DNA from: Escherichia phage GaoY1-9D
Direction: 5' to 3' (one strand)
Sequence record: PP971806.1
Length of the DNA stretch: 50,368 nt
In this document: in pieces, positions 31,469 through 50,368 of the stretch
Numbering within the stretch: position 1 is the stretch's first letter
How the letters are laid out: every line of letters begins with the position of its first letter
Translations under genes and position numbers: made by a program
The notes under the pieces: generated by a model
What the model was told of the DNA's origin: nothing
The model's database searches: none
What the model saw: only the letters and a program-made list of their open reading frames with translations

Positions 31469-31472
31469 ATTG

Positions 31473-31946: not shown

Positions 31947-31959
31947 CTCATCACCTCAA

Positions 31960-32038
31960 TAGCACTTTTTGTTAAACATTGGTTTCGAAGGTTGTTATTA
32001 TAACGTCAATCGAACGAACATGAAAGGCATTTAATACT
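31960..32038 (+). promoter_or_regulatory. intergenic cassette copy in divergent region
   Basis: TAGCACTTTTTGTTAAA; TGTTATTATAAC; AATCGAACGAAC; RBS GAAAGG. Confidence 0.6.
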
Positions 32039-34141: not shown

Positions 34142-34228
34142 TTACAGATTTGTTTTATGTGTGTAAAAGTGATTCTCTTAGATGGAAGGCTAAATCAAGT
34201 AAAAAACAAAAGAACAACATAGGCGAAG

Positions 34229-34639: not shown

Positions 34640-35057
34640 TAAAGGCGATTACCTGGAGTATTACACTCCAGACAAATCGGATACATGGACCGAGAACAAG
34701 CACCAGGTCGATTGCGTGACCTGGACGAAGGTTAGGCATTGTGATTTGCTGTTCTGGCACGCCGTTAATGAGAACAAGAAGCACATCCACACGGCGTTAA
34801 AGGATGCTCAGAGCGGGTTATTGAAGGGGGTTAGTGACTTTGTATTCCTTATAGGTCCGTTCGGTAAATATCCTTTCGGAGCCATAGAATTAAAGCGCGT
34901 CAATAAGAGCGGAAAAGGAAAGGCATCACCAGTCAGTAAGGAGCAGAAAGATTTCCTCCGGCGCGTCCGTGAGCGTGGCGGATTCGCGGCGGTGGCATAC
35001 GGCCAAGAGGAGTATAAGAAAGCTGTTCATGACATGCTGAATAGCACGAATTGCTAA
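34626..35057 (+). CDS. VRR-NUC-like nuclease (putative)
   Basis: GVSDFVFLIGPFGKYPFGAIELK (D ... ELK); protein ends MLNSTNC, read through cassette dyad. Confidence 0.45.
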   Translation: MSIIDKGDYLEYYTPDKSDTWTENKHQVDCVTWTKVRHCDLLFWHAVNENKKHIHTALKDAQSGLLKGVSDFVFLIGPFGKYPFGAIELKRVNKSGKGKASPVSKEQKDFLRRVRERGGFAAVAYGQEEYKKAVHDMLNSTNC

Positions 35058-35115
35058 AGAGGAATCAGTGAGGTGGTGTATTATCACCTCATCGAAACGA
35101 AGTAACCAACCAAGG
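35042..35115 (+). promoter_or_regulatory. intergenic cassette copy
   Basis: TAGCACGAATTGCTAAA; hairpin GAGGTG/CACCTC with TATTAT; CATCGAAACGAAG. Confidence 0.6.
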
Positions 35116-35123
35116 AAATCAAA

Positions 35124-35396
35124 ATGAAAAAGTCAATCATCGCTCTACTGGCAGTTGTGGCAATGGCAGGTTGTGCAGAAGATACCAAGTTTTACGATTG
35201 CGGTAAGGAATCATTCACAGTAACCAAGTCACAGATTGTTTCAGACAAGGGCGTTGTTATTGAGCGTGAAGGCGATCACTATGAACTGCAAACTTTCTTG
35301 GGGAAGGCGGTTTACAACGTGACTGAAAGTCAAGTCAAGGTTAGCGTAGGTGGGTTCGTTGCCGTAAATAACTGTAAAGTTACCGAGGTTAAATAA
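35124..35396 (+). CDS. small lipoprotein
   Basis: signal peptide with lipobox AMAGC; adjacent to dam start. Confidence 0.55.
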   Translation: MKKSIIALLAVVAMAGCAEDTKFYDCGKESFTVTKSQIVSDKGVVIEREGDHYELQTFLGKAVYNVTESQVKVSVGGFVAVNNCKVTEVK

Positions 35397-35397
35397 G

Positions 35398-36126
35398 ATG
35401 AACGACTCAAATGACAAAGATACCCATGACGCATTCGTTAGCTTTGAACAGATCGAGCGTGAAAACTTTGTTACCAATGCGCTTGTTCCTGGGAACGGTC
35501 ATTACCAGGCGGTCAAGCCTGATACCTTCTATCGGGTAACTGGAAACCGATACGCAGGAAGCAAGACGCCTGACGCTGTGCGTGACCTTTGGGCAACTGA
35601 CAGAGAAGTGATCTCATGGATGGAGTCGCGTTATGGTAAGTACGACATTGACGCCGCCGCCAGCGCTAATAATGCTGTTTGCGAAAAGTTCTACAGCGAA
35701 CAAGTGAACTGCCTCAAAATCTGGTGGGGTAGCAATAAGCACATCTGGCTGAATCCTCCGTACTCACATCCAGATCCTTTCGTGAAGAAAGCGATTGAGC
35801 AAATGGAACACAACAATCAGATTGATATGTTGCTTCCTGGTGATAACTCAACGGCGTGGTTTGCCGAAGCACGACGCAACGCGGCTGAAATCATCTGGAT
35901 TGAGGCGGACATCACAGAGATTGACAGTCAGGAATATTGCCGGACGGGGCGGTTGGCATTCATCTCTGGACTGACCGGAAAGCCTGTCGATGGCAACAAT
36001 AAAGGTAGCGTGATTTTTGTCATGCGAAAACTGCAAGAAGGCGAGACGCAGAAAACGACATACGTTAGCGTTGCCGATATTTGTCCTGGCGTAAGCCGTA
36101 AGAAACCACGTAAACGGAGTGTTTAA
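35398..36126 (+). CDS. dam: DNA N6-adenine methyltransferase
   Basis: catalytic NPPY motif (WLNPPYSHP). Confidence 0.8.
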   Translation: MNDSNDKDTHDAFVSFEQIERENFVTNALVPGNGHYQAVKPDTFYRVTGNRYAGSKTPDAVRDLWATDREVISWMESRYGKYDIDAAASANNAVCEKFYSEQVNCLKIWWGSNKHIWLNPPYSHPDPFVKKAIEQMEHNNQIDMLLPGDNSTAWFAEARRNAAEIIWIEADITEIDSQEYCRTGRLAFISGLTGKPVDGNNKGSVIFVMRKLQEGETQKTTYVSVADICPGVSRKKPRKRSV

Positions 36127-36127
36127 G

Positions 36128-36355
36128 ATGAGCAGTGTACAAATCAATTTAACCGACAAAGGTCAATATCTTTTATTCCGCGCGATCGTTTGTGAGGTGT
36201 TAACGAAAGCAGGCTTTAAGGGTGACGCTTGGGAGTTCTCGGATCTGGATATGTCATTCGAAGAAGTGCAGGATCAGCCGATTAACACATGGGCTAAAGC
36301 GATACGAAAGGATATGGAAGACTATAAACGCGATTGCCCCGAAGATTTCGCATAA
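36128..36355 (+). CDS. hypothetical protein
   Basis: ATG 36128 in frame of track ORF 36119..36355. Confidence 0.45.
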   Translation: MSSVQINLTDKGQYLLFRAIVCEVLTKAGFKGDAWEFSDLDMSFEEVQDQPINTWAKAIRKDMEDYKRDCPEDFA

Positions 36356-36420
36356 TAGCACGAATTGCTAAACATACCCGCCGCCGCGCGGGTATACTTC
36401 TTTCATACCAACGAGACGAG
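36356..36420 (+). promoter_or_regulatory. intergenic cassette copy
   Basis: TAGCACGAATTGCTAAA; hairpin ATACCCGC/GCGGGTAT; CAACGAGACGAGG. Confidence 0.55.
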
Positions 36421-36428
36421 GAATCACC

Positions 36429-36662
36429 ATGAAGAAGCAACCTTTTAGCACTTACAACCAGCAGGCATACCGTAAAAATATTTTACTGCCGCACCTGCTT
36501 CGCCTGGCTAATGAGTGCGCAAGTGAAGCGCTGTCGCTTGGTAAGGACGGCGGTCTTGACGAAGTGATTGCCGTTACTTATCTCAAGGGCGCTTATGGTC
36601 ACTTGCCGATCGCAGACTATCAAGCTATGTCAGGGAGCTTTGACATTTATGGTAACTGTTGA
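36429..36662 (+). CDS. hypothetical protein
   Basis: ORF after cassette. Confidence 0.45.
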   Translation: MKKQPFSTYNQQAYRKNILLPHLLRLANECASEALSLGKDGGLDEVIAVTYLKGAYGHLPIADYQAMSGSFDIYGNC

Positions 36663-36894
36663 GGTAGGTCGTCAGGCTGTTTGGGATCACTGCAAGGAGG
36701 CAGGCATAAGTGATGATATTGCTCTTATAGCAAAGTATTTCGATATTAAAGATATATGCGTCATTTTCAACGGAAAGATGACGTATATACACGAAAGGCC
36801 GCGTAAGCTTATCAGAGTTCCGGCAACTCCGGTTAAGATTGACTACAAGGCCTGCATTCAAGCAACGAAAGACGCAGCGAGAAGATATAAATGA
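36649..36894 (+). CDS. hypothetical protein
   Basis: internal ATG 36649 of track ORF 36568..36894. Confidence 0.4.
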   Translation: MVTVEVGRQAVWDHCKEAGISDDIALIAKYFDIKDICVIFNGKMTYIHERPRKLIRVPATPVKIDYKACIQATKDAARRYK

Positions 36895-37142
36895 GCTTAC
36901 CAGGCCTTGATTTTGACGCTGACAAATATCCGACTTGCAGCAACAACAATGAGACGTTCGCGATCATCCCTTTCGCTGACTGGTTGCCTTCTGACTTCGA
37001 AGATGTGCCATGTTCGCGCGGTGGCGGCTATCGCCTGATGTATTTTAGCCCGTCAACTGGTATGATGGTTCCCAGCGAATCAGAGATAACAGGCGAGGCG
37101 GTTGAACCAAATACTTTAACGACATGGTTGAAAAAGATTTGA
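36891..37142 (+). CDS. hypothetical protein
   Basis: ORF overlapping previous stop. Confidence 0.45.
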   Translation: MSLPGLDFDADKYPTCSNNNETFAIIPFADWLPSDFEDVPCSRGGGYRLMYFSPSTGMMVPSESEITGEAVEPNTLTTWLKKI

Positions 37143-37225
37143 TGCGCTGCTTAATTGCTGTATTATTACCGCCGCTAATTGGTTTTATTATCATCTACTT
37201 ACTAACACGATAAGGATTTACAAAA

Positions 37226-38356
37226 ATGGCTATTCAAAAAATCACTGACGAACAATTCATTGCTGAGCGCGAAGCTGGTAAAACACTCCGCCAGATTGCC
37301 CAGGAATACGGGATGAACATCCGCACCGTAGAGCAACGCTCAAGCAACCTGGCCAAGAAAGGTCACGGACACGGTAACAAAGCTGTTGCTAAATATGTTC
37401 CTGATGGATTCGCTGTAAAAGGCACGTCAACCATGATTGATGCGGAAGGTAACGAGAAGATCCGGTGGGTTAAGACCTCAATTGATAATGATCGCCTTGA
37501 GGTTCTGATGGAGCAGGCTCGTGAGGCATTCTGCTCAGAGTTGCCGAAGGCAGATGTGGTAATCCATTCAGGCAATGAGGTCAATTCTGAATTAATGACT
37601 CTTTACCCTATTTTCGATATCCATATTGGCATGATGGCACATCGCCATGAATCTGGTGAGAATTATGACACTAACACGGCAGAGAAATTAATGGGGTCAT
37701 ATTTTGACCACGCAATCTCTGTATCACCAGCCTCAGAGAAAGCTGTGATTTTAGTTGGTGGAGACTTCCTCCACTCTGATGGGTTGGAGGCGGTAACTCC
37801 AGCAAGCGGACACTGCCTTGATCAGGATAGCCGATATGCTAAGCTAGTTTATGTTGCGATTCGCTCAATTCGTGGTGCAGTAGAGAAGATGCTTAAAAAG
37901 CATAAAAATATCGAGATTCAGGTTATAGAAGGAAATCATGACCAAAGTGGAATGATTTGGCTTCGCGCAGCAATTGCTGCATTTTATGAAAACGAGAATC
38001 GCGTGTTTGTTGATACCAGTCCGGCAATCATGCATAAAACAAGATTTGGCTCAACACTACTTGGCTACACGCATGGTCACACCATGAAGAAGGCGGAAGG
38101 GAGATTGGCGGCAATGGCAACTGACTACCGTAAAGACTTTGGCGAATGTGAGTTTGTCTACTGCCACTCCGGCCACTTCCATCATGCAACTGTTACAGAA
38201 TGCACGCTTGGCATTGACGAAGTTCACCCAGCCCTGGCTAGTAAGGACGCATATGCAGCTCGTGGAGGTTGGAGATCATATCGTCAAGCGGCTGCAATCA
38301 TCTATCACAAAGAGTTTGGCGAGGTTGGTCGCCACATTTATCGCCCAGGTATGTAA
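37226..38356 (+). CDS. HTH domain fused to calcineurin-like metallophosphoesterase
   Basis: N-terminal TLRQIAQEYGMNIRTVEQ; motifs DIH, GGDFLHSD, EGNHD, GHTHG, HSGHFHH. Confidence 0.55.
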   Translation: MAIQKITDEQFIAEREAGKTLRQIAQEYGMNIRTVEQRSSNLAKKGHGHGNKAVAKYVPDGFAVKGTSTMIDAEGNEKIRWVKTSIDNDRLEVLMEQAREAFCSELPKADVVIHSGNEVNSELMTLYPIFDIHIGMMAHRHESGENYDTNTAEKLMGSYFDHAISVSPASEKAVILVGGDFLHSDGLEAVTPASGHCLDQDSRYAKLVYVAIRSIRGAVEKMLKKHKNIEIQVIEGNHDQSGMIWLRAAIAAFYENENRVFVDTSPAIMHKTRFGSTLLGYTHGHTMKKAEGRLAAMATDYRKDFGECEFVYCHSGHFHHATVTECTLGIDEVHPALASKDAYAARGGWRSYRQAAAIIYHKEFGEVGRHIYRPGM

Positions 38357-38357
38357 G

Positions 38358-38420
38358 TAGCACTTTTTGCCTAACATGTAGCGCCGGAAGGCGCTATATT
38401 CATATCTCACTCACAGAGGA
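38358..38420 (+). promoter_or_regulatory. intergenic cassette copy
   Basis: TAGCACTTTTTGCCTAA; hairpin TAGCGCC/GGCGCTA; GCTATATT. Confidence 0.5.
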
Positions 38421-38427
38421 TTCAATC

Positions 38428-38601
38428 ATGGTTAAATTATTTTGTGTTAAGAACACATCTAAAACCCTGCCTTTCACTGTTAAAAATCCGTACAGCGCCG
38501 AGTATCAAGGTGACGGTAACTACAAGATTTACGGCGACGATATGACGTGGATTTTTGCGCCTATTGATGGTGCGCTGGTTGAATTTATTATCGCTGACTA
38601 G
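38428..38601 (+). CDS. small hypothetical protein (57 aa)
   Basis: ATG 38428 with RBS AGAGGA. Confidence 0.4.
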   Translation: MVKLFCVKNTSKTLPFTVKNPYSAEYQGDGNYKIYGDDMTWIFAPIDGALVEFIIAD

Positions 38602-38626
38602 CGCATTAAAAACATAACGTTACGAA

Positions 38627-38653
38627 CGGGGAGCCTTTAGGCTCCCCTTTTTT
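38627..38653 (+). terminator. intrinsic terminator
   Basis: hairpin GGGGAGCC-TTTA-GGCTCCCC then T6. Confidence 0.7.
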
Positions 38654-38733
38654 GTGCTTCTTTTCTGTACCGTGCTAATGTATTATGTTTTTTACTAACT
38701 GAGATATTGACAAATAAATAAAAGGCGGATCAC

Positions 38734-38949
38734 ATGAGGGAAGTAATTAACGCTGCTACAGCGTCAACTGGTGGAGCTGCGGTAACTGGCGCGGCAACTG
38801 GTCAAATGACTATAGCAATAATCAGCCTTATCGCTCTAATCATTTTTGGTGCGTGGGGGGCTTACTGGAAGTTTAAAGATAGTCAGGCGATTCGGCGAGC
38901 TCTTGAATCAGGAGACTTAAAAACAGCAATCAAGATAAGGAGCAAGTAA
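38734..38949 (+). CDS. holin (putative)
   Basis: 71 aa with transmembrane segment; immediately upstream of endolysin. Confidence 0.55.
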   Translation: MREVINAATASTGGAAVTGAATGQMTIAIISLIALIIFGAWGAYWKFKDSQAIRRALESGDLKTAIKIRSK

Positions 38950-39435
38950 ATGAAGCAGAAGTTGGTCATTAGCGCAGCGACGGCTGCGGCAATATACATT
39001 GCAGCACCGCTCATTGAGCTCGTTGAGGGTGTGGAGAACAAGCCTTACATGGACATTGCCGGAATCCCTACGGTGTGTTCCGGTATTACTGGCCCCGACG
39101 TAGTTTGGGGTAAAACTTACAGTAACAGGGAGTGCCGGAACCTGCTGGAGAAACACATTCAGATTCATGCTAAGTATGTTCAGAATGCAGTCACCTACCA
39201 AATCTCACCGCAAACAAGGGCGGCTTTAATCAGCTTTAGCTACAATGTTGGCGGCTCAGCGATGAGGAAATCTACTGCCGTTAAGTTAATTAACCAGGGT
39301 AAGATTGAGCATGGTTGCAAGGCTCTCGGGATGTGGACAAAGGCTACCGTTAATGGCAAGAAGGTTGTCGTTAAGGGGTTAGTGAATCGCAGGAATGAGG
39401 AGATTAAGTTATGTTTAAGTGGATTGCGGCGTTAG
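38950..39435 (+). CDS. endolysin (lysozyme, T4-lysozyme-like fold)
   Basis: Glu ... Asp spacing in ELVEGVENKPYMDIAG typical of GH24 lysozymes. Confidence 0.75.
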   Translation: MKQKLVISAATAAAIYIAAPLIELVEGVENKPYMDIAGIPTVCSGITGPDVVWGKTYSNRECRNLLEKHIQIHAKYVQNAVTYQISPQTRAALISFSYNVGGSAMRKSTAVKLINQGKIEHGCKALGMWTKATVNGKKVVVKGLVNRRNEEIKLCLSGLRR

Positions 39436-39800
39436 TAATGTGCATGGCTTTATCTGGGTGCTCAGCAACATCTGCGCTGACTGGTTTAATTGGCAGCAAG
39501 CCAGAAATCAGTGCGCAGGCTGGGGCCGAGAACGTGAAGCAAACGGTAGGCGTTACCGGAAAGGTGGATAAGTCAAACGACAACGACACCACTATCAAAG
39601 ATTCAAAGGTAGGAAAGGTTGATACGTCAAACGGGAAGTCTGTCAGCACCTCAAGCATCAAGGCTGACACCATCATCGCTGATAATATTGAGATCAGGAA
39701 CGATGACTCGAAAGGTAATCTGATTGCCGGACTGGTATTCCTGTTCATTGGCATTCTGATGATTGCTATTTCAATTTGGCTGGAACGACGCAAAAAATAA
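39411..39800 (+). CDS. unimolecular spanin (lipoprotein with C-terminal transmembrane anchor)
   Basis: lipobox LSGC at N-terminus; C-terminal TM LIAGLVFLFIGILMIAISIWL; overlaps endolysin 3' end. Confidence 0.7.
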   Translation: MFKWIAALVMCMALSGCSATSALTGLIGSKPEISAQAGAENVKQTVGVTGKVDKSNDNDTTIKDSKVGKVDTSNGKSVSTSSIKADTIIADNIEIRNDDSKGNLIAGLVFLFIGILMIAISIWLERRKK

Positions 39801-39828
39801 AAGGAGCCGAAAGGCTCCCTTTTTTTAT
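39801..39828 (+). terminator. intrinsic terminator (same hairpin as 10705..10728)
   Basis: hairpin GGAGCC-GAAA-GGCTCC then T8. Confidence 0.7.
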
Positions 39829-39975
39829 CCAAATCTTTGCACCAGTAGCAACAATTCACCTTCATTATTGCACAATGTATGCTCATCACGTCGCCCTGCG
39901 CGCATGGATGAGTTAAGCATTGAAAGAAGGGCTTGGTTAAGACCATCCTCACTGATAGCATTCTCAGAACTGCAT

Positions 39976-40338
39976 CTAATTATCGCGTCGATTACGACCT
40001 GACTTTCCAAATAACTCTCCATCGCTCATCTTCTCTATGTTCATCATCTCCCATGTATAGCGATCACCCTCACCGCCATAGCACTTGAAATGAAATTCAA
40101 ATGGCCTTTTTTGCGCGCCCTTGGACCAGTACCAGTTATTCACGCCGTCAAGGTATCCTTCTGCCATACATCTTGCAATAAACTCCTTTGATGATGATGA
40201 TGCGAAATAGCGAGGAGTCACGCCTGCGGCCTTCGCAAGACGCTCGCACTCCCTGTGCTTGTATATGAATACCGCCAGGTGCTGACGGTTGAATTTTTCA
40301 TAGCCTTCGCAAAAACGGTACAGATCCAGAAGAAACAT
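39976..40338 (-). CDS. hypothetical protein
   Basis: ORF immediately downstream of P-loop protein gene, same strand. Confidence 0.5.
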   Translation of the reverse strand: MFLLDLYRFCEGYEKFNRQHLAVFIYKHRECERLAKAAGVTPRYFASSSSKEFIARCMAEGYLDGVNNWYWSKGAQKRPFEFHFKCYGGEGDRYTWEMMNIEKMSDGELFGKSGRNRRDN

Positions 40339-40341
40339 AAT

Positions 40342-41925
40342 TTACCCCAGCAGTCGCGGATTAATGTAAATTTTATCACCAATCAGGCAAGTGTAGTTTT
40401 TCTCATCCAGCATAGGGATCAGGTGATCTTTGATGCGAGTCATTACACCACTTTGCCCTTCAAAGGGTTTAACCTTACGAGCCGCTTCATATAGGGATCG
40501 GACACCTACAACGCCCTTCCCGTTCTTACCTTGCTTGATCAGAATATCGATCAGCTTATTCATCTCCGCATGGTCGCCAGCATGACCAGCAGCGTTTGCA
40601 GATGACAGATAAGTCTTACTCAGTTCCTGGAACATAATTACCGCTTCCTGCATTGTGTCAAGCTCAATCTCTCTAGACTTCTGCGGACTCCCGCCATTGG
40701 GATTAAACCAGTTACGCACAGTGTGAAGAACAGCAGCGATCCTGATAGCCTGCTTATCGAACTTACCCAGCGCTCCGCGAAGCATTGTGTGTGAATACTT
40801 CCCGCCGTCCGCAAGGTGAGGCTCCATATCCTGACGAGCACGGTTGAGATATTTCATCGCCGACGTGCTCACTGTTAGGTTGACTTCGTGTTCGCTCATG
40901 ATCTCATGGACCAGACGGAAGTAGTCCGCCTTGAGTCCGCCATCAATCGGCTCATATGTTGATTCGCCTTTCTCATCTACGAACACACGCTCACCAAGGA
41001 ATGACTTCTCACGCACAAGCAAGAAACGTTCTGACACACCGATACCACGCGCACCAGCATTCATGATCGCGTTGATTGTTTCATCCTGTGCAATTACAGA
41101 TATGCAGCCCATCGCAATGAAGCTCATGTTATTGTCTGCGTTCGCACGGGCGATAGACACGTTACCAGCATCCCATGCTTTCAGCACAAGCTCGCTGTTC
41201 GTTTTCTTTGAGCCGTCACCATAGGTCATGCCTAACAGTGAGTTCACGCTCGTTGCTTCATCCGAGATCACTGCAAAGTTGCCCTGGCGGTTGTTGATTC
41301 GCGCAAGACCTTCCGGCGTGGTGTCGGATACGGGGAAAACGATGTCACAGAGTCGTTCAAGTTTTTCTTCAAGTTCCTCTTTCTCATCAAACAGAGCCGC
41401 CATATCAGATGGTGATTTCTCCTGCTTCATCTCCTTGGATAGAGCGGAGAGCTTAGCCATAATCTTCTTGCGGTCACGCTTTCGGATCTCGTTGAGTCGC
41501 TCAGTCTCTGCGATCATTGGGGCCAGGGAAAGTGAGTTAATGGCTGATTTACCCGTCGATGGCGGCTGACTGGTTACGACGTACAGCGCGGTCGGCTGTT
41601 GTGTTCCGTGATACTCAACCGTAAATCGGCCCAGCATGGCGGCTGATATGCATCCGAGGAAATGCATGTAAGCGGACGACTCGGGGAACTGAACTGAACG
41701 AGCGGCATTGCTTGACAGCTTACCAACGACATCACAATCGTTACCAAGTGAGATAACCGGATATTTGTCACCGCCTGAGTCAATTTCTGTTGGGGCTTTC
41801 CAGAATGATTGGCTCTGCCTGTATCCGTTCGCATTGATGGCAACGCGCAAAGGTGGCAGGTTATCGGCAGCGGCTACAGCCATGACCTGATCGATTGACA
41901 ATTTATCTTCGTTGAAATCAAACAT
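40342..41925 (-). CDS. P-loop NTPase of unknown role (possible replication initiator or helicase-type ATPase)
   Basis: Walker A QPPSTGKSA; Walker B-like AVISDE; N- and C-terminal modules shared with 46901..47464. Confidence 0.55.
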   Translation of the reverse strand: MFDFNEDKLSIDQVMAVAAADNLPPLRVAINANGYRQSQSFWKAPTEIDSGGDKYPVISLGNDCDVVGKLSSNAARSVQFPESSAYMHFLGCISAAMLGRFTVEYHGTQQPTALYVVTSQPPSTGKSAINSLSLAPMIAETERLNEIRKRDRKKIMAKLSALSKEMKQEKSPSDMAALFDEKEELEEKLERLCDIVFPVSDTTPEGLARINNRQGNFAVISDEATSVNSLLGMTYGDGSKKTNSELVLKAWDAGNVSIARANADNNMSFIAMGCISVIAQDETINAIMNAGARGIGVSERFLLVREKSFLGERVFVDEKGESTYEPIDGGLKADYFRLVHEIMSEHEVNLTVSTSAMKYLNRARQDMEPHLADGGKYSHTMLRGALGKFDKQAIRIAAVLHTVRNWFNPNGGSPQKSREIELDTMQEAVIMFQELSKTYLSSANAAGHAGDHAEMNKLIDILIKQGKNGKGVVGVRSLYEAARKVKPFEGQSGVMTRIKDHLIPMLDEKNYTCLIGDKIYINPRLLG

Positions 41926-41929
41926 TAAA

Positions 41930-41995
41930 ATAACTCCTTAGTTGGTGCGCCAATGTTAACGCACCTATGGTAAAACCGCTTGCCAGAAAATGCTA
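41930..41995 (-). promoter_or_regulatory. degenerate cassette-like element
   Basis: minus strand TAGCATTTTCTGGCAAG then hairpin GGTGCG/CGCACC then RBS AAGGAG. Confidence 0.35.
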
Positions 41996-41996
41996 C

Positions 41997-42346
41997 TTAT
42001 TTATACGCCGCCTCAAATCGATAGGTTCCGCATACTGTTTCGAATCCGACATCATCCGAGCGGTACAGTTGCCAGGCTACGCCGTCGTTGTCGAAGATGT
42101 AACCAGCGTTACTACCGAGTCCTGCGTGCATGTCAACCTGATAGCGTTTACCTTGCGTGAAGTCTTTTTTAACGGAAGACTTGTGATTAATCTTCGTCAC
42201 GTAAAGGGTTTTGGTCTTAATGTATCGGCCATTGACGTCCAGGTTAACCCACTTGCCATCAACCTTGATTTGCTCTACCTCATCTTTCACGCGAGCTTTC
42301 AGAAGGCGGTTATCGGAGGTAACGAAGTTTTTGGTGGTGATTGTCA
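41997..42346 (-). CDS. hypothetical protein
   Basis: internal ATG 42346 with RBS AAGGAAA within track ORF 41997..42458. Confidence 0.45.
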
Positions 42347-42357
42347 TTTTGATTTCC

Positions 42358-42528
42358 TTATTTAGCGTAATTGGTAGAGAATTTAGCGCCAGCAAACTTT
42401 GATGGTTTACGGTTTGCATTGATTGTTTCATAAACCTTCTTAGTATCGCGAGCGTCAATTACCTCAAAAACCATCAAAGCGACCATTGGGAAAACTACTG
42501 CGATAACCATCAAAGTTAAAATAATCAT
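42358..42528 (-). CDS. small membrane protein (56 aa)
   Basis: internal ATG 42528; hydrophobic MIILTLMVIAVVFPMVALMVF. Confidence 0.35.
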   Translation of the reverse strand: MIILTLMVIAVVFPMVALMVFEVIDARDTKKVYETINANRKPSKFAGAKFSTNYAK

Positions 42529-42544
42529 TTTCTCTAGCTCTCGT

Positions 42545-42607
42545 TGTTTCGTTTCGATGGAGTAATAGTATCGCATCCTTGCGATTGTGTTTTAACAAAA
42601 AGTGCCA
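42545..42607 (-). promoter_or_regulatory. intergenic cassette copy (minus orientation)
   Basis: minus strand TGGCACTTTTTGTTAAAA; hairpin ATCGCA/TGCGAT; CATCGAAACGAAAC. Confidence 0.55.
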
Positions 42608-42855
42608 TTTGCTAGTTTGACATATCAATCCAAGAAAATACAAACTAACTCTATTCTAAATCAAACGGTATTGACCTATTGTAAAAGTACATATAACAAT
42701 CATAGTTATGTTTTGGTTGCACCGTCTCAGATAGACACGCCTTTACAGAATCGCGGTCAGATGGATCTACATGCTCAGCCTTAAGTAATGCTAAGATCTG
42801 GTTATAGCGCACCATTAGTTGTACAATTTGCTCCTGCCTCATATTATCTACCCCC

Positions 42856-43086
42856 TTAAAGTTGCTCGGCAATGTAAGAATGACAAGCGCGAAGCTTCAT
42901 TAATGCACTACCTTTCACTTCGCCTACTATGTTCATAACCTCTAATCGATCCTGTGGGTTCATCTTAGCGTGCCAGACATGGTTAGCAAGTTCCAGATTG
43001 CTCATGTTAGGTTCCATCTCAAGCAGCTCTCGCTCGAAGTCTATAACTTCTCTTGCAGCTTCTTTAAAGTTAATCATTTTCTTCAC
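42856..43086 (-). CDS. hypothetical protein
   Basis: ORF with RBS AAGGTG; cassette upstream. Confidence 0.5.
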   Translation of the reverse strand: MKKMINFKEAAREVIDFERELLEMEPNMSNLELANHVWHAKMNPQDRLEVMNIVGEVKGSALMKLRACHSYIAEQL

Positions 43087-43094
43087 CTTTCTTT

Positions 43095-43156
43095 ATTTCG
43101 TTTCGATGGGATGAATATACAGGAAAAGCCCCGAAGGGCTTTAGCAATTCGTGCTA
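43095..43156 (-). promoter_or_regulatory. intergenic cassette copy (minus orientation)
   Basis: minus strand TAGCACGAATTGCTAAA; hairpin AGCCCTTCGGGGCT; TGTATATT; CATCGAAACGAAAT. Confidence 0.6.
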
Positions 43157-43302
43157 TTTCGTGCTTTCTCTATCGCATTTAGCATTGTTTCATGGCTCTC
43201 GAGCAAATCCTCGTTAAACCAATCACCGCATGGCCATCCCTTTCCGCTATAGGCACTAATGACTTCCAGATCGAAGTAGTTTATCTCAGATGGCAGGAGC
43301 AT
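43141..43302 (-). CDS. small hypothetical protein (53 aa) ending NSTNC, translated through the cassette dyad
   Basis: ATG 43302 overlaps upstream stop; RBS GAGGTG; stop TAA inside dyad. Confidence 0.3.
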   Translation of the reverse strand: MLLPSEINYFDLEVISAYSGKGWPCGDWFNEDLLESHETMLNAIEKARNSTNC

Positions 43303-43541
43303 CACTTCACCTCATCAAAAGTTGCAACCCCAGGGATGAACATCCCAACCTTCCAGCCTGCGATAGCAACCCAGCCAGAATCGTGCTTGTGCGGTCGCTC
43401 AGCGCCATTAATCACCCATTCGTTCGGGATTGTCTTACCTTTAATGATTAGAGGCTCAGCGTCGTATACAGAGCCTTTTACGAACGGTGTCAAAACCTTC
43501 TTGTCGGTGCTGGTTATTACGTTAGTGCATCGAATCTTCAT
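43302..43541 (-). CDS. hypothetical protein
   Basis: internal ATG 43541 with RBS GGAG; track ORF 43302..43559. Confidence 0.45.
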   Translation of the reverse strand: MKIRCTNVITSTDKKVLTPFVKGSVYDAEPLIIKGKTIPNEWVINGAERPHKHDSGWVAIAGWKVGMFIPGVATFDEVK

Positions 43542-43542
43542 G

Positions 43543-43926
43543 TTAAACTCCGTAATCAATTTTTACGAGATGGCCATTATAGTAACCAAAGTTTTTAGGT
43601 AAAGCGTCATACTCAAAGAAATCTTTATCAAGTTTCTGCGGCTCATTTGACGCATATGTGTACAACCTCTCTAGCTCAATCCAGAACAAGCCTTTATGAT
43701 TAACTGGTCTTGCTCTGGTCATAACTACAACTAAGCCAAATTTATTTGAATACTTTATTGGACAAAGGAACTTATTGTCATAACCTTTCCATTGCCCTTC
43801 GGTTATGTTGCTTAACATACCTTGAACAAAATTCTTCCATGTGTTTGCTCTCGGTAGCTTTATGGCGTACTTTTTGGTTAAAATAACTAACCTTGTACCT
43901 CCAGATCTAATTATCTTCATTTCCAC
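43543..43926 (-). CDS. minimal protein-kinase-like protein (putative)
   Basis: ordered motifs RSGGTR, YAIK, YDALPKN, KIDYG in 127 aa. Confidence 0.4.
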   Translation of the reverse strand: MEMKIIRSGGTRLVILTKKYAIKLPRANTWKNFVQGMLSNITEGQWKGYDNKFLCPIKYSNKFGLVVVMTRARPVNHKGLFWIELERLYTYASNEPQKLDKDFFEYDALPKNFGYYNGHLVKIDYGV

Positions 43927-43929
43927 CCC

Positions 43930-44145
43930 TTAGAACGGTATTCCGTCATCAAATTTTAAGCGGTAGTCGAAGTCATCCCCGATCCCATCTACTGACTGGT
44001 TGCTTTCGCTTTCCAGATCCATATCCATAACGCCCAACGCGTCATCGAGTTCGATGCATCCGTAAGCAACCTTGAGCGCCCACTCTTCATTAAGTCCGGC
44101 TTCAAGTGCCGCGCGGTGGCGGCTCCAGAAATTATCTTGATGCAC
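43930..44145 (-). CDS. small acidic protein with SSB C-terminal-like tip (FDDGIPF)
   Basis: 71 aa, Asp/Glu-rich, ends KFDDGIPF; compare SSB end QFDDDIPF at 28201. Confidence 0.5.
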   Translation of the reverse strand: MHQDNFWSRHRAALEAGLNEEWALKVAYGCIELDDALGVMDMDLESESNQSVDGIGDDFDYRLKFDDGIPF

Positions 44146-44147
44146 TG

Positions 44148-44372
44148 TTAGCTCCAGGAATTGATGTAAAGTGAGTTATCGTTTAACAGGTTGACCATCT
44201 CGGCGCGGGTAAGGCTACGGATGATTGAGCCTGGATGAGTGCCAACAACGTAGCGGTCGAACTCACGGCGCGTAATGGTGATTTGGCTAACTCCTGCGGC
44301 GCGGTCAAGTTTGATGATTGCGCGGCCTTTGGCTTCGATATGTGCTACTACGTTCTGAGCTTTAACTGACAT
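44148..44372 (-). CDS. hypothetical protein
   Basis: ORF with cassette upstream. Confidence 0.5.
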   Translation of the reverse strand: MSVKAQNVVAHIEAKGRAIIKLDRAAGVSQITITRREFDRYVVGTHPGSIIRSLTRAEMVNLLNDNSLYINSWS

Positions 44373-44389
44373 TTTTACTTCCTCTTGTA

Positions 44390-44452
44390 TACTTCGTTTC
44401 GATGAAATGATTATGCCTCAATCCGTGAGGCTTAGTTTAGCAATTAGTGCTA
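44390..44452 (-). promoter_or_regulatory. intergenic cassette copy (minus orientation)
   Basis: minus strand TAGCACTAATTGCTAAA; hairpin GCCTCACGGATTGAGGC; CATCGAAACGAAG. Confidence 0.6.
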
Positions 44453-44453
44453 T

Positions 44454-44780
44454 TTATGCGATGTCGAACTCTGCCGCGTACGCTTCTTTGATACCCGATT
44501 CACGCATGGTGCGCTTGCTGATTTTGCGCGGGTGACGGTACTGAGCGTTAGGCTTAATCCACCAGAAGCAAGCAGTTTCACGAACGATTTCATAAGTGCT
44601 GTAACGAGTGAAAGTATCGCGCTCTGCGTCAGGTTGGGATACACAAGTCAGGTTCTTAACTTCCGGCTTGATTTCTTCCCAAACGAATGAATCCATACCG
44701 TTAACCTTGCAAGCTACCATCACATATTCAACGCCATTTTCGATTTTGATGATGTCGTTACCGCGATTTTCGTATTTCAT
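44454..44780 (-). CDS. hypothetical protein
   Basis: ORF with cassette upstream. Confidence 0.5.
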   Translation of the reverse strand: MKYENRGNDIIKIENGVEYVMVACKVNGMDSFVWEEIKPEVKNLTCVSQPDAERDTFTRYSTYEIVRETACFWWIKPNAQYRHPRKISKRTMRESGIKEAYAAEFDIA

Positions 44781-44789
44781 TTGCTTTCT

Positions 44790-44857
44790 CTATGTGTCTC
44801 GTTTCGATTAAGTAATAATACCCCATCGTGAGATCTGGCGTTTAGCAATTCGTGCTA
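44790..44857 (-). promoter_or_regulatory. intergenic cassette copy (minus orientation)
   Basis: minus strand TAGCACGAATTGCTAAA; TATTATTACTTAATCGAAACGAGAC. Confidence 0.6.
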
Positions 44858-44859
44858 TT

Positions 44860-45666
44860 TTATATGTCGCTGAAAACTTCACAGCTTTCACTGCAAGATC
44901 CGGTGTCGAATGATTTGGCCCCTCTAACCCTTGAGGCTATCTCATCTCTCGACTGTGGAAACATCTGTATAATGTCACCGATTGAGCGCCTTCCTCTGTA
45001 CATGTCAGATGATGATTCCTTTTTATTGTGCTCACTAATTGTGTCAATGAATAGCTTTGCAAGTTCCGGCTCATCTTTACACGCAAGCGCAATCTTAAGC
45101 TCTGACTTCTTGATGCAGAAAACGCAGTTACCAAGATGCTCATCAATTTCAAGGTCAAATGGCATGTCATGCCAGAAGTCGATAATGTCCTGTTTTTCGA
45201 AATCAGATATGTCAGCAAGGTAACTGAACCCATCGACGGGTTTTAGTCTCTTTGGCTCATCGGCACGAATACCAATCCATCTCTGATAATTACCCTTACC
45301 ATACTTCTCCTCGCAGTACTTCTCGAATGGCTTAGTCTTCATCCTGTTCGTACAGAATGGCCCGCCTTGGTATGGATTTCCGTACTTCCTTAGCATTCTA
45401 ATCCACCCAGTCAGATCATGGTGAATGTCATCGACGCTGACAACTTCGAAAGATGGAGCCCCGCGGAACTTATCGCTGGGCAAACATCTCAGGCAGGTTA
45501 TCGGCCTTGAAAGCATTGATGAGACTTTACGGATAAACTCATATGTCTTCGGATGCTCTGCTCCAGTGTCCATATAAATCACCTCCGCGTCAGGATGAAT
45601 CTTGAGTACCTCAAGTGTCATGTATGCCGAAGTCCTGCCGCCGCTAAAACTAATTACCTGATTCAT
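44860..45666 (-). CDS. PAPS reductase-family PP-loop ATPase
   Basis: PP-loop SFSGGRTSAYM at N-terminus; ATG 45666 with RBS AGGAG. Confidence 0.7.
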   Translation of the reverse strand: MNQVISFSGGRTSAYMTLEVLKIHPDAEVIYMDTGAEHPKTYEFIRKVSSMLSRPITCLRCLPSDKFRGAPSFEVVSVDDIHHDLTGWIRMLRKYGNPYQGGPFCTNRMKTKPFEKYCEEKYGKGNYQRWIGIRADEPKRLKPVDGFSYLADISDFEKQDIIDFWHDMPFDLEIDEHLGNCVFCIKKSELKIALACKDEPELAKLFIDTISEHNKKESSSDMYRGRRSIGDIIQMFPQSRDEIASRVRGAKSFDTGSCSESCEVFSDI

Positions 45667-45744
45667 TTCAACTCCTATTTGTGCGCTAAATAACAACCAG
45701 ATGATAGCAACTAACCCATGAATGGTCATTAGCAAAAAGTGCTA
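45667..45744 (-). promoter_or_regulatory. cassette-like element upstream of PAPS reductase gene
   Basis: minus strand TAGCACTTTTTGCTAAT at 45728-45744. Confidence 0.45.
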
Positions 45745-46373
45745 TTCGTTCGATTTATGGATTGTTGCAGCTATTGCAATGATTCACATGACTATTGCAC
45801 AGATAGCAATATTGCATCTATTGCAATGATGTTTTCTATTGTTGCGAATTGAGCAATGATTCATTGATGGGGGGAATGATGGGGTGATCAAGGATCACCT
45901 GATCGACTGGTAGGATTTTCCCGCCACACGCTTCTAGCGTATACGCGTTATTTATGTTATGCCATGTAGACACACCAGCACTCCGTAGGAATCATGTACG
46001 CATATCACGCTTAATTACGCCATGGTTACATTAAAATATCCTTATATAATAACCATTTATCTATATTATTATTATTAATATATATATATGTAGATAATGT
46101 AGATAGTGGATATGTGATATTGCGATAGTTTTCTATGATATTTTCCTACACCTGTAGGAATATGACGACATTGTAGGAATAAAAGGGCATGTAGGGGCCC
46201 ATTTGCTAAAAATCCTTATCTACAAACTATACGCAGACTTTACATTGAGCTATATCTGGGGCGATTGGTGGAAATATGTAACTAATCAGAAAATTTGCAC
46301 CGATAACACTTGATAACACGTAGATGTGTGATACTATGGAATCATCTTAGCGAAGACCAACCAATCAGGAGTA
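45745..46373. repeat. AT-rich non-coding region with TATTGCAATGAT repeats, GATC-rich palindrome, GTATAC and GTAGGAAT motifs and (TTA)n/(TA)n tract
   Basis: TATTGCAATGAT at about 45772 and 45819; GGTGATCAAGGATCACCTGATC; TGTAGGAAT three times; core related to 25560..25665. Confidence 0.6.
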
Positions 46374-46901
46374 ATGAGTATGTCAGAGCACAAAGAAGCA
46401 GTAAGCCTCGGTGACGTTATCCGCTACATGGCGGAGCAAGCGCTCAAGTCCGAGAACCGCAGCTACCACGTCCCAATCCATCTAATAGCTCGCCAGGTTT
46501 ACGGCCTCACATCTAGTGATATAGGAGGCATAAGTCGTGAGGATCTGGATGTAGGTGGCAAGTACAGTATGGCAAAGCTGAAGGCGTCATATGTCGCCAA
46601 TACGGTAGCCAGGATGCCAGAGATACAGGCGGCAAACGTTCGTGCAAAACTTTCAATTAAGGATGGTGATTTCGGTGATGACGTCGAGGTTCGGTGTGCT
46701 TATCTGTCTTTGGTTGATGGCGCAATCCAGACAGGAAAGCGAGTGAAGGCAAACTGCCAGATTGCAGAGAAGGCTGTGAGCGACTTTAAGGTCAAAATAC
46801 TCAAGCTGATGCCATCCGTGACTAACTTTGAGGGCGATGAGATTACAGGAGCCATCAAGGCAATCAAAATGTACCAGGAAATGATTAGGGAGACGAAATA
46901 A
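46374..46901 (+). CDS. hypothetical protein
   Basis: ATG 46374 with RBS AGGAG; first gene after AT-rich region. Confidence 0.5.
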   Translation: MSMSEHKEAVSLGDVIRYMAEQALKSENRSYHVPIHLIARQVYGLTSSDIGGISREDLDVGGKYSMAKLKASYVANTVARMPEIQAANVRAKLSIKDGDFGDDVEVRCAYLSLVDGAIQTGKRVKANCQIAEKAVSDFKVKILKLMPSVTNFEGDEITGAIKAIKMYQEMIRETK

Positions 46902-47464
46902 TGTGGATGTTTGATTTTAACGAAGAGAAGCTGACAGATGAGCAGATTATGAAGATTGCTACGGAAGATGGGATTCCACCACTACGAGTTGCAATCAATG
47001 CTAACGGATACCGACAGTCACAAAAGTACTGGTGCGAATTAGAAGTTATGCGTCGCGCAAACCTAAATCGTGAACAATGCGTCGTGGTTGAAAAGATCTG
47101 GAAGCAAGCGATAAATGGAAAAGGCGTTGTGGGAGTTCGCTCAACATATGAGGCGATCAGAAAGGTCCAGCCGTTCGTCGAGCGTAATGGAGTAATGAAT
47201 AACCTGATTGACAATATCCTACCATCACTACAGGACGCGGGAATCATTTGCCTTATTGGTGACAAGATATATGCACACCCATACCTGGTGGGCATGTATG
47301 GGAGAGACATCCACAAGTGGTGCGACTCATGGAGATCGGTTGAGCGCAAATCTCATAGCAAATTGCAGGCAAGCTCAGACATGATTCATGGCTATGATGC
47401 CGATGATGTCAGAAAGGCTGTCGAGTTTTATCGGAAAGCTAAATCACTCCTGAACGGTGAATAG
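46901..47464 (+). CDS. hypothetical protein, truncated paralog of the 40342..41925 P-loop protein
   Basis: shares MFDFNE-KL ... PPLRVAINANGYRQSQ and GKGVVGVRS-YEA-RKV-PF ... CLIGDKIY with the 527-aa protein. Confidence 0.55.
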   Translation: MWMFDFNEEKLTDEQIMKIATEDGIPPLRVAINANGYRQSQKYWCELEVMRRANLNREQCVVVEKIWKQAINGKGVVGVRSTYEAIRKVQPFVERNGVMNNLIDNILPSLQDAGIICLIGDKIYAHPYLVGMYGRDIHKWCDSWRSVERKSHSKLQASSDMIHGYDADDVRKAVEFYRKAKSLLNGE

Positions 47465-47525
47465 CACGAATTGCTAAACAATAAATCGGGTAGTCAGCTA
47501 TGATTACCCTATCGACAACAAAGAG
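47462..47525 (+). promoter_or_regulatory. intergenic cassette copy
   Basis: TAGCACGAATTGCTAAA; GGGTA/TACCC around GCTATGAT; TATCGACAACAAAGAGG. Confidence 0.55.
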
Positions 47526-47528
47526 GAA

Positions 47529-47738
47529 ATGATTATGGAAACTGTACGTATTGACGATGTTCACTTTGACCAAGCAGAGGTCAGCGTTAGAAAAACAGTT
47601 CGTGGGGCGGTTGTATCTCTAGACTTTGATCCTGACGACTACGCAGACTGTCAAACACTGATGCAATACTCACCTGATGCTGCCCGCAAATTAGCTGCGG
47701 CATTAATCCTTGCGGCAGACGAAGTAGAGGGGAAGTAA
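47529..47738 (+). CDS. small protein, paralog 1 of tandem triplet
   Basis: C-terminal motif DAARKLAAALILAADEVEG shared with next two ORFs. Confidence 0.5.
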   Translation: MIMETVRIDDVHFDQAEVSVRKTVRGAVVSLDFDPDDYADCQTLMQYSPDAARKLAAALILAADEVEGK

Positions 47739-47740
47739 TT

Positions 47741-47947
47741 ATGGAATCTGTAATTATCGAAGATTTCGCAGGTGACAGCACAGAGGTGTCAACATCCGTA
47801 TATTACGACGGCATCGTGAGCATTGACATTGACATTGACACCGAAGACCGTGGCTATAGCTCCACTATGGCTCATTACACACCAGAACAAGCACGCAAGC
47901 TGGCGGCGGCGCTTATCCTGGCGGCGGAAGAGGCAGACAATCAATGA
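47741..47947 (+). CDS. small protein, paralog 2 of tandem triplet
   Basis: C-terminal EQARKLAAALILAAEEAD. Confidence 0.5.
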   Translation: MESVIIEDFAGDSTEVSTSVYYDGIVSIDIDIDTEDRGYSSTMAHYTPEQARKLAAALILAAEEADNQ

Positions 47948-48162
47948 GAGACATTCGAGTTAACTCATCATGGAATCAGGAAACAGAAATCTCAGTAATC
48001 AAGGTTCCGTTCGGAAAGATGCGTAAGCGCGTGCACCTGGACCTTTCGCCGGATTCGCAAGTGGATGGCGCTGGCATGACATACACCGCAGAGCAGGCGC
48101 GCGAACTTGCTGCGGCGCTAATTAAGGCAGCTGAGGAAGTGGAGGCGGAAGTCGATGAGTAA
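47944..48162 (+). CDS. small protein, paralog 3 of tandem triplet
   Basis: C-terminal EQARELAAALIKAAEEVEAE. Confidence 0.5.
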   Translation: MRDIRVNSSWNQETEISVIKVPFGKMRKRVHLDLSPDSQVDGAGMTYTAEQARELAAALIKAAEEVEAEVDE

Positions 48163-48355
48163 ATTCAGGATCGCATTGATTGAAACAACAACCGCCTTCG
48201 GTCATCCGGTCAAGTGGTATGCCGTCCAGAAACGGGTGGCCTTGTTCTGGTGGGTGACAGTGGCACATGCAAGCCAGATTGACCAGGCTCGCTACTGGCT
48301 GCATAAGTCCGGCGCACCGCATCGCAAAGAGAATGTGGTGCGAGTGGTAGAATAG
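48155..48355 (+). CDS. hypothetical protein
   Basis: start overlaps previous stop; stop TAG is first triplet of cassette. Confidence 0.45.
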   Translation: MSKFRIALIETTTAFGHPVKWYAVQKRVALFWWVTVAHASQIDQARYWLHKSGAPHRKENVVRVVE

Positions 48356-48420
48356 CACTTTTTGTTAAAACTACCGTGAGTGCACTTGCTATAGTGCACT
48401 CATTGAATCGAAACAACCAA
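48353..48420 (+). promoter_or_regulatory. intergenic cassette copy
   Basis: TAGCACTTTTTGTTAAAA; hairpin GAGTGCAC/GTGCACTC with TGCTATAGT; ATTGAATCGAAACAACC. Confidence 0.6.
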
Positions 48421-48475
48421 TTAGTCTGATACTGTTTTAATATTGTATTTCCACTTAATTATTGAGGTTAAGGCC

Positions 48476-48688
48476 ATGTTAGTAAGACCAAAAATGAACA
48501 AGGTAGAGCTTGAAGGCGATAATGAGATTGTACTCACGCGTAAAAATGAAGGCATCAATTATGACATAAGAAATGAGAGCAATGTAGCAGTATGCATTAG
48601 CAACTTTAGCTTTTATGGATTGACGCAAAAAACCAGGTTAGGCAGATTCTTTGCAGCGATGAGGATTGTATGGAAATTCTGTAAATAA
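48476..48688 (+). CDS. hypothetical protein
   Basis: ATG 48476 with RBS GAGGTTAAGG. Confidence 0.45.
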   Translation: MLVRPKMNKVELEGDNEIVLTRKNEGINYDIRNESNVAVCISNFSFYGLTQKTRLGRFFAAMRIVWKFCK

Positions 48689-48706
48689 ACACTCAGGAGA
48701 ATCAGA

Positions 48707-48925
48707 ATGAACAACGAAGAAATGATTAAGATCCGTATTATCAAGTCTCCGTATCAGGGCGTTGACTCAAGCAAGCTGCCAGTGGTGGCGATGGCCTGGA
48801 AGTTGGTAGGCGATAACGAAGAGCCATTTTACATGGTTGACGCAGATTTCATTCCGGCGCTCAGCAAGAAAGGAATGGCACCAGGCGAATGGCCCTTTGC
48901 AGAGGATGAGGTTGAATTGCTATGA
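48707..48925 (+). CDS. hypothetical protein
   Basis: ORF with RBS AGGAGA. Confidence 0.45.
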   Translation: MNNEEMIKIRIIKSPYQGVDSSKLPVVAMAWKLVGDNEEPFYMVDADFIPALSKKGMAPGEWPFAEDEVELL

Positions 48926-49020
48926 AGTTCAAATTAGTTGACGTGCTGCAATTGCTTCTTGTTGGGTTATCCTGGGTGCTTCTGTTCCTGGTGATTATCT
49001 TTCTGGTAGTGGTTAAATAG
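48922..49020 (+). CDS. small hydrophobic peptide (32 aa)
   Basis: ATGA overlap with previous stop; LLLVGLSWVLLFLVIIFLVVV; stop TAG inside cassette. Confidence 0.3.
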   Translation: MKFKLVDVLQLLLVGLSWVLLFLVIIFLVVVK

Positions 49021-49095
49021 CACGAATTGCTAAACCTTCCGCAAGGCCATTTGATATAGTGGCCTTATTGAAGCAAAACAACCAATCACAGAGGA
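49018..49095 (+). promoter_or_regulatory. intergenic cassette copy
   Basis: TAGCACGAATTGCTAAA; hairpin AAGGCCA/TGGCCTT with TGATATAGT; ATTGAAGCAAAACAACC. Confidence 0.6.
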
Positions 49096-49102
49096 TTCAC
49101 AA

Positions 49103-49483
49103 ATGAAAGTACGTTTACTTAACCCGTCAATCTACTCCCTCAAACCAAACCAGAAACTTAGCGATTGGAGCAAGGTCGCCGATCCGGAAAGTTACCCCGT
49201 AGTGGTTGAGACTGATGATATCAGCCATGAACCTAAAATCATTCAGGATGCATTCAAGGATCGCGCTCTTGTCGGTGCTAGTGAGCTGGATCGTGTTTTT
49301 AACATGGGTGGAGGTTACAAACGAAGAAGCGACACGCAGCTTGGATGGTGGAACAATCAGAATAACTCAAGTCGCCCACATATCCCTAGTAACTCCTGGG
49401 AGCCAGTCGGCCCGTTCGATTTCTGGAACAAATTAAAGGCATCACGCGAAATTGGTGAAACTGTAGGTAAGGGTTACTTATGA
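49103..49483 (+). CDS. hypothetical protein
   Basis: ORF with RBS AGAGGA after cassette. Confidence 0.5.
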   Translation: MKVRLLNPSIYSLKPNQKLSDWSKVADPESYPVVVETDDISHEPKIIQDAFKDRALVGASELDRVFNMGGGYKRRSDTQLGWWNNQNNSSRPHIPSNSWEPVGPFDFWNKLKASREIGETVGKGYL

Positions 49484-49659
49484 TTACTTTATGCATCGTG
49501 CTTTACATCCTGGGCGCACTTCCGGTTTATGCAATTGCAAAAGATGTTAGCAATAGTGACAACAAGTGGTACGACATGGTAATCGTTGCCGCTATCTGGC
49601 CCCTGGCCATTTCGCTCGGAGTGGTCAAGGGCATCTACCAAAAGTTGAAGGAGCAATGA
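49480..49659 (+). CDS. small membrane protein (59 aa)
   Basis: ATG 49480 overlapping previous stop; two hydrophobic segments. Confidence 0.35.
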   Translation: MITLCIVLYILGALPVYAIAKDVSNSDNKWYDMVIVAAIWPLAISLGVVKGIYQKLKEQ

Positions 49660-49865
49660 TTATGATCCCGTTGAAGCCAATAGTTTTTATGCGTAATGGC
49701 ATTTGGTTTGCGGTAGTTTGTGGAACTGGATACGTCTATTCAAAAACAGCCGGAAGATGGTATAAGGCTTTAAGCCAGGCGATGGTATTTACTAATTTGG
49801 TTACAGCCATCCGAACAGGAACGGCATATCAGGTTAAGGGGTTAAAAAATGCAAGTCTACACTAA
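49656..49865 (+). CDS. hypothetical protein
   Basis: ATG 49656 overlapping previous stop; track ORF 49566..49865. Confidence 0.4.
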   Translation: MIMIPLKPIVFMRNGIWFAVVCGTGYVYSKTAGRWYKALSQAMVFTNLVTAIRTGTAYQVKGLKNASLH

Positions 49866-50067
49866 CAGTAAAGGCATCGAATTTTGTGCGGTCGGAGATG
49901 TTGTCCTGCGCACTGGTAGCGATGTCGGGGTTGTTAAAATCTCACGCATCACACAGGATCAGTTGGTAAAGGGCATCCAGGCTGGAATCTTTACCTATCA
50001 CTCATCGTTGACGGCTGATGATTACATCACACTTGATGCTGCGGTTCGCGTTGGGTTCATCGAATAG
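49849..50067 (+). CDS. hypothetical protein
   Basis: ORF; stop TAG is first triplet of cassette. Confidence 0.45.
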   Translation: MQVYTNSKGIEFCAVGDVVLRTGSDVGVVKISRITQDQLVKGIQAGIFTYHSSLTADDYITLDAAVRVGFIE

Positions 50068-50140
50068 CACTTTTTGTTAAAACTTGCTCGGAGACATTAG
50101 CTATAGTGTCTCCTGTCAAGTGAACACAAATCAACTGAGG
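50065..50140 (+). promoter_or_regulatory. intergenic cassette copy
   Basis: TAGCACTTTTTGTTAAAA; hairpin GGAGACA/TGTCTCC with GCTATAGT; RBS GAGGAA. Confidence 0.6.
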
Positions 50141-50148
50141 AATCACAT

Positions 50149-50368
50149 ATGAACAGCATCAACCGATATATCCCTGTGTCAGCGCCAACCAGCGTCAACA
50201 TTCACGGCGTCGGAATGCAATCCTGCGACGATGGAGCATGGGTATCCTACGCAATGCATAAAAAAGAAATTGAGTCGTTACAGGCGCGTTTAAATGCCTT
50301 AGAATCGAATCAAAAACATCAAATTTCTGTGCCGTCAATTATCGCCGATCATGTTGAGCAAGCAATCC
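50149..50368 (+). CDS. hypothetical protein, 3' end cut by window (same gene as 13..714)
   Basis: ATG 50149 with RBS; in frame with 13..714 across the terminal duplication. Confidence 0.5.
   Translation, partial: MNSINRYIPVSAPTSVNIHGVGMQSCDDGAWVSYAMHKKEIESLQARLNALESNQKHQISVPSIIADHVEQAI

Follow-up and report, generated by a model that had tools for sequence, protein, structure and literature searches.

Coliphage T1 is a pac headful packager whose DNA is terminally redundant and circularly permuted (PMC5238451). Its record opens at the left end of the annotated terminal repeat, for which GenBank gives a repeat_region at 1..2800 (2,800 bp). For the T1-like phage TLS, restriction mapping revealed a pac fragment in submolar amount and headfuls permuted in steps, and a redundancy of approximately 1 kb per headful has been inferred (PMC11447400). 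The TLS record opens with an AGATTT motif that was assigned as pac by its authors (PMC11447400). Digests of SU57, also a T1-like phage, gave a restriction map of the circular type, with no cos (PMC7718038). PhageTerm analyses of the T1-like phages MSK and KanT1 pointed to headful packaging or redundancy.

The largest k-mer length accepted by the assembler SPAdes is 127. The same number stands at the top of its canonical k series of 21, 33, 55, 77, 99, and 127 (PMC8172020), and exact 127-bp overlaps on phage contigs assembled with SPAdes have been described as artificial (PMC5923482). One T1-like phage, U136B, yielded a SPAdes contig with 127-bp terminal repeats that were removed by the authors (PMC8104045).

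In this study, we analyzed a 50,368-nucleotide stretch of DNA of Escherichia phage GaoY1-9D (PP971806.1; hereafter, the window), the ends of which repeat each other over 127 bp. The results indicate that this repeat is almost certainly a k-mer-length overlap left by SPAdes on a circular genome and not a biological feature.

Terminal duplication and genome unit

Direct comparison of the window ends revealed that positions 1..127 and 50242..50368 are exactly identical, and 127 is the sole length at which prefix and suffix agree. The identity ends there, with TCAAGG following from position 128 and GCATGG standing immediately before 50242. The probability of a random match over 127 bases is approximately 4^-127. 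When both strands of the unit were scanned with the 20-mers of the 127-bp segment, no further copy was identified. Because the identity is exact and the segment single-copy, the duplication is real and not a chance match. Without the redundant copy, the unit measures 50,241 bp (1..50241). The two copies are as follows:

1..127, no strand assigned: first copy of the end overlap, covering codons 32-73 of the junction gene and single-copy in relatives
50242..50368, no strand assigned: second and redundant copy of the end overlap, exactly identical to 1..127

All sequence-level statements of the first-pass annotation hold, including an exact 127-bp duplication of the ends. It had further read the record either as a linearized circular map or as one carrying a terminal redundancy. 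The former reading stands, and the record is a linearized circular assembly of a complete genome with an arbitrary cut point. The latter falls because 127 is the SPAdes maximum k and the redundancy figures found for T1-like phages, those of T1 and TLS, are on the kilobase scale.

Taxonomic assignment and comparison with relatives

On the basis of sequence comparison, the window is assigned to a virulent T1-like coliphage of the family Drexlerviridae, genus Nouzillyvirus. In megablast searches against deposited phages, CJ19, XT34, p111, PH1062, P817, and ESCO41 (Escherichia phage vB_EcoS_ESCO41, NC_047820, the type species) covered 51-93% of long query segments at approximately 88-92% identity, with a coverage of at least 73% for the best segment of each phage. 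All six share with the window the same gene order and the same module of small terminase subunit (TerS), large terminase subunit (TerL), and portal genes. Different from the window, ESCO41 contains a tRNA-Arg(tct) gene in a segment of approximately 190 bp that is flanked by the counterparts of window positions 3895 and 3898; no tRNA genes were found across the whole window.

The window is identical to no deposited genome. Phage p111 (L006, OL449681.1, vB_EcoM-p111), which is among the closest, aligns with 91% identity over 81% of the unit and was deposited as circular with one coding sequence across the origin. The possibility that the window is the p111 record was rejected given these values of coverage and identity and a different gene content. 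The p111 record has a length of exactly 50,241 bp as well, which is a coincidence. Homing endonuclease and HNH genes of p111 are absent from the window, and the two phages thus differ by mobile endonuclease insertions. Within window positions 4746..8176, the TerS gene directly overlaps the TerL gene and the portal gene follows; in the corresponding p111 region (16734..21242), TerS and TerL are separated by an extra open reading frame (ORF), and TerL and portal by a homing endonuclease gene.

Nouzillyvirus relatives have been deposited with about a dozen different map positions as record starts, and the origins of ESCO41 and of other Nouzillyvirus isolates differ from that of the window. Such scattered origins are as expected if these genomes all assemble as circles.

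A conserved early gene across the junction

The cut point of the window falls inside a gene whose two parts lie at opposite ends of the record:

50149..50368, plus strand: 5' part of the junction gene, with ATG at 50149 and GAGGA 9 nt upstream; it continues at 128 once the overlap is trimmed, or equivalently into 13..714
1..714, plus strand: 3' part of the junction gene, with the reading frame open from base 1 up to the TAG stop at 712..714

The ORF beginning with ATG 50149 is in phase with 13..714, as (50241+13-50149) mod 3 = 0. Once the junction is closed, it encodes a protein of 268 amino acids that terminates at the TAG of 712..714, and an in-frame stop is present upstream at 50104. The ATG at position 13 corresponds to internal Met36 and is not the true start, and the window is cut at codon 32. 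No Pfam or PHROG family was matched by the junction protein. Its homologue in ESCO41, gp08, is likewise 268 amino acids long and is 81% identical end to end. Identities to the homologues in PH1062 (WKV16881) and XT34 (WPK42177) are 93 and 78%, respectively, and the N-terminus MNSINRYIPVS is the same in the junction protein and in all three homologues.

The 3 kb over the closed junction are contiguous, internal, and single-copy in relatives. In ESCO41, positions 2809..6514 form one high-scoring pair with window 49849..3306 that runs through the junction, and PH1062, XT34, P817, 50EP, and CJ19 give similar results. This contiguity, together with a restored protein that is full length relative to annotated homologues, indicates that the closure is correct. 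The 50,241-bp circular unit with a gene spanning the junction, as proposed in the first-pass annotation, is therefore borne out by the relatives and by the restored 268-amino-acid ORF. The junction gene is a conserved early gene that is intact on closing of the circle, and the cut inside it is an accident of assembly.

Inside the gene, an in-frame segment of 60 bp at 361..420 (20 amino acids, TAKMEPRSGGYGYSNRHVWA) is shared by the window and ESCO41 gp08 and is missing from the PH1062 and XT34 homologues, representing a clean indel polymorphism inside the genus Nouzillyvirus.

A cassette had also been noted ahead of ATG 50149. It is real and represents one of 15 copies of a direct repeat in the window (up to one mismatch), compared with 0 expected by chance:

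50064..50082, plus strand: 21-nt intergenic direct repeat ATAGCACnnnTTGnTAAAA, present as the copy ATAGCACTTTTTGTTAAAA, 67 nt upstream of the ATG of the junction gene
711..729, 2066..2084, and 2695..2713, and starts at 30405, 31959, 35041, 36355, 47461, 48352, and 49017: further copies of ATAGCACnnnTTGnTAAAA
starts at 42590, 43139, 44435, and 44840, minus strand: copies of ATAGCACnnnTTGnTAAAA

The repeat matches a consensus known from direct repeats of TLS, T1, and Rtp (PMC11447400), for which roles as a stoperator, an enhancer, or an UP element have been suggested. Downstream of the copies at 711 and 50064, a -10-like TATAAT or TATAGT is located inside a short inverted repeat (GGGGATT..AATCCCC and GGAGACA..TGTCTCC, respectively).

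Terminase genes and packaging mode

Both terminase subunits were identified in the window:

4746..5282, plus strand: small terminase subunit of the P22 gp3 type, matched by Pfam, PHROG, PDB, and T1 TerS
5279..6865, plus strand: large terminase subunit (ATPase/nuclease), matched by Pfam, PHROG, and T1 TerL

The TerS protein matches Pfam PF16677 GP3_package with 34.4 bits (cut-off 29.4), PHROG 606 (E = 4.6e-53), and P22 gp3 in the PDB (3P9A; E = 3.5e-14), and is 55% identical to T1 TerS. As the DNA-recognition subunit, it is expected to choose the pac site. The TerL protein matches PF17289 Terminase_6C and PHROG 38 (E = 1e-104) and is 61% identical to T1 TerL over the full length. A sequence search of TerL against solved structures gave no match, and its typing thus rests on T1 orthology together with Pfam and PHROG. 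No match to lambda GpA or to the HK97 Terminase_1 family was found, that is, the genes do not have the character of a cos-type terminase. Nor is the enzyme of a kind that generates direct terminal repeats (DTRs), TerS belonging to the P22 gp3 family and TerL having its orthologue in T1, a headful packager. Both subunits have the orthology to T1 and TLS, and TerS the P22 gp3 type, that mark T1-like headful phages. The genome also behaves as a circle, as shown by its closure and by relatives that are either circular or deposited with scattered origins.

Headful (pac) packaging is probable for this phage given the P22-gp3-type TerS, the T1-orthologous TerL and TerS, and the experimental data on T1 and TLS. 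The first-pass annotation had come to the same mode on the ground that a cut inside a gene fits headful packaging and not cos ends. This logic is invalid because a de Bruijn path that forms a circle may be opened at any node, and a phage with cos ends or long DTRs would show the same cut if its reads assembled into a circle. Its conclusion is probably right, on terminase homology and the T1 and TLS data instead of the reason that was given.

The phage shares with T1 and TLS orthologous TerL and TerS (61 and 55% identity to those of T1), a TerS of the P22 gp3 type, the layout of the early region, and a homologous 'GATTGTTGCA' candidate start point in the non-coding DNA that precedes the rightward early genes. 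Packaging has been mapped in TLS, whereas for the phage studied here it is predicted from sequence. Packaging in series of 3-4 headfuls, with a submolar pac fragment and redundancy on the kilobase scale, is known only for T1 and TLS. Members of this group would package concatemers by a headful mechanism, and their reads would consequently close into a circle. The P22-gp3-type TerS would pick the pac site, where TerL would make the first cut. Later cuts would occur when the head is full, leaving virion DNAs that may be redundant by approximately 1 kb or more and partially permuted.

Predicted pac region

A divergent non-coding region of the window holds the homologue of T1 position 1 and contains several repeat features:

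45736..46373, no strand assigned: divergent non-coding region of 640 bp, predicted pac or left end, with the T1 position-1 homologue
45761..45863: TATTGCAAT-type iterons in the non-coding region, which also contains a G-run
45878..45904: hairpin in the non-coding region
46040..46105: TA-rich palindromic stretch in the non-coding region

The same divergent region also contains TGTAGGAAT repeats at 46153..46190. T1 position 1 (gatt/GTTGCA) aligns to window position 45,764 (gatt G/TTGCA) in a short, motif-level alignment, and this motif level is all that aligns between the T1 left-end DNA and the window. Position 1 of ESCO41 and of XT34 both correspond to window position 45,765. In both T1 and TLS, approximately 540-590 bp separate the start point from the first rightward early gene downstream. 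Approximately 160 bp of the region (45719..45879) are 86-93% conserved in phages of other Drexlerviridae genera, in which hardly any further part of the 2.7-kb query could be aligned.

Record conventions and this short alignment lead us to predict a pac cut near 45.76 kb; the window junction lies approximately 4.5 kb downstream of this point. The interval 45719..46373 may contain pac, serve in early control or as an origin, or combine these roles. Initial cleavage is predicted close to 45,764, in non-coding DNA that precedes the rightward early genes, instead of at window position 1, where defined physical ends are not expected.

Origin of the 127-bp overlap

When reads close into a cycle, SPAdes writes a linear contig from an arbitrary node and repeats its first k bases at the end. 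With a largest k of 127, a 127-bp terminal duplication would then arise as de Bruijn-graph bookkeeping. The window agrees with this in several respects: the prefix and suffix are identical exactly at the final k length and no longer, the segment is single-copy and removal of one copy restores colinearity with relatives, and the cut follows no feature of the genome, lying at codon 32 of a gene while relatives open elsewhere. SPAdes is named as the probable assembler on the strength of the 127-bp length and published cases. Similar to the window, the contig of U136B, a T1-like coliphage of approximately 49 kb, had an exact 127-bp end duplication at an arbitrary map position that disappeared on circularization. 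The two cases differ in that SPAdes is documented for U136B, and in that the cut of the window splits a gene annotation. The exact 127-mer was absent from IMG/VR and from the JGI metagenome contigs, and an exact look-up of TerL in a gene-position index gave no match. For related contigs, a search of IMG/VR returned six loci; the end overlap is absent from the sole related full-length environmental contig that was tested (L012, 48,887 bp).

Three other origins of the end repeat were weighed. The phage might have cos ends, with the circle produced from ligated or concatemeric junctions and the overlap still an assembler artifact. Circular closure by itself should not distinguish cos from pac, and a packaging experiment on any Nouzillyvirus was not found in the literature searched, both of which leave room for this explanation; it is nevertheless very unlikely in view of a TerS of the P22 gp3 family and a TerL 61% identical to that of T1, the submolar pac fragment of TLS (PMC11447400), the failure to detect cos in SU57 (PMC7718038), and the PhageTerm results for MSK and KanT1, which indicate headful packaging or redundancy. 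Less likely still is that the 127 bp represent the whole headful redundancy and the contig one physical virion molecule. T1-like phages are indeed terminally redundant, but the figures for them are approximately 1-2.8 kb with ends that vary between molecules, and a consensus assembly therefore cannot reproduce the ends of any one molecule. Short-read assemblers, moreover, collapse such redundancy into a circle, and an exact 127 bp fits k and not biology.

It is extremely improbable that the 127 bp are a genuine short DTR with exact ends in the style of T7 or SP6, present in every virion. The repeat is exact and situated at both ends of the record, and T7-like phages, in which short exact DTRs of 100-250 bp exist, offer a general precedent. 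However, a genuine DTR of this kind would be expected at fixed physical ends, outside coding sequence and at the same location in related phages. Here, the repeat is embedded in a conserved ORF, fixed ends would split the gene in every virion, and no relative has a record that opens at the window junction. The terminase, being of the T1 and P22-gp3 type, is linked to headful packaging and not to DTRs; T1 and TLS have kilobase-scale redundancy and partially permuted ends; and the length of the repeat is exactly the SPAdes maximum k. For the DTR to be real and exact, a member of the Drexlerviridae would have had to switch from pac headful packaging to fixed ends that bisect an early gene, which would then be rebuilt in the cell by circularization or concatemerization, a scenario that is likewise extremely improbable. 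As a whole, the end repeat is very likely best explained as an assembly artifact on a complete T1-like genome that closes through probable headful concatemers, with a predicted pac near 45,764. The feature is accordingly an ordinary one, already known as an assembly artifact and found here on the genome of a known phage genus.

Implications for the genome and its record

As an artifact, the 127-bp overlap carries no information on the ends of the virion DNA; what it does show is the completeness of the genome. In practical terms, the duplicate 127 bp should be trimmed to give the true genome of 50,241 bp, and the contig should then be rotated, preferably so that it opens as T1 does, at approximately 45,764. 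If left unrotated, a gene caller gives a truncated gene of 233 amino acids (13..714) and an orphan 5' fragment (50149..50368) in place of one gene of 268 amino acids. A 'DTR' of k-mer length is a known route to mislabeled phage ends in viromics catalogues, and the overlap is not usable to infer packaging mode or physical termini. Its value is as a flag of completeness, since the assembly closes.
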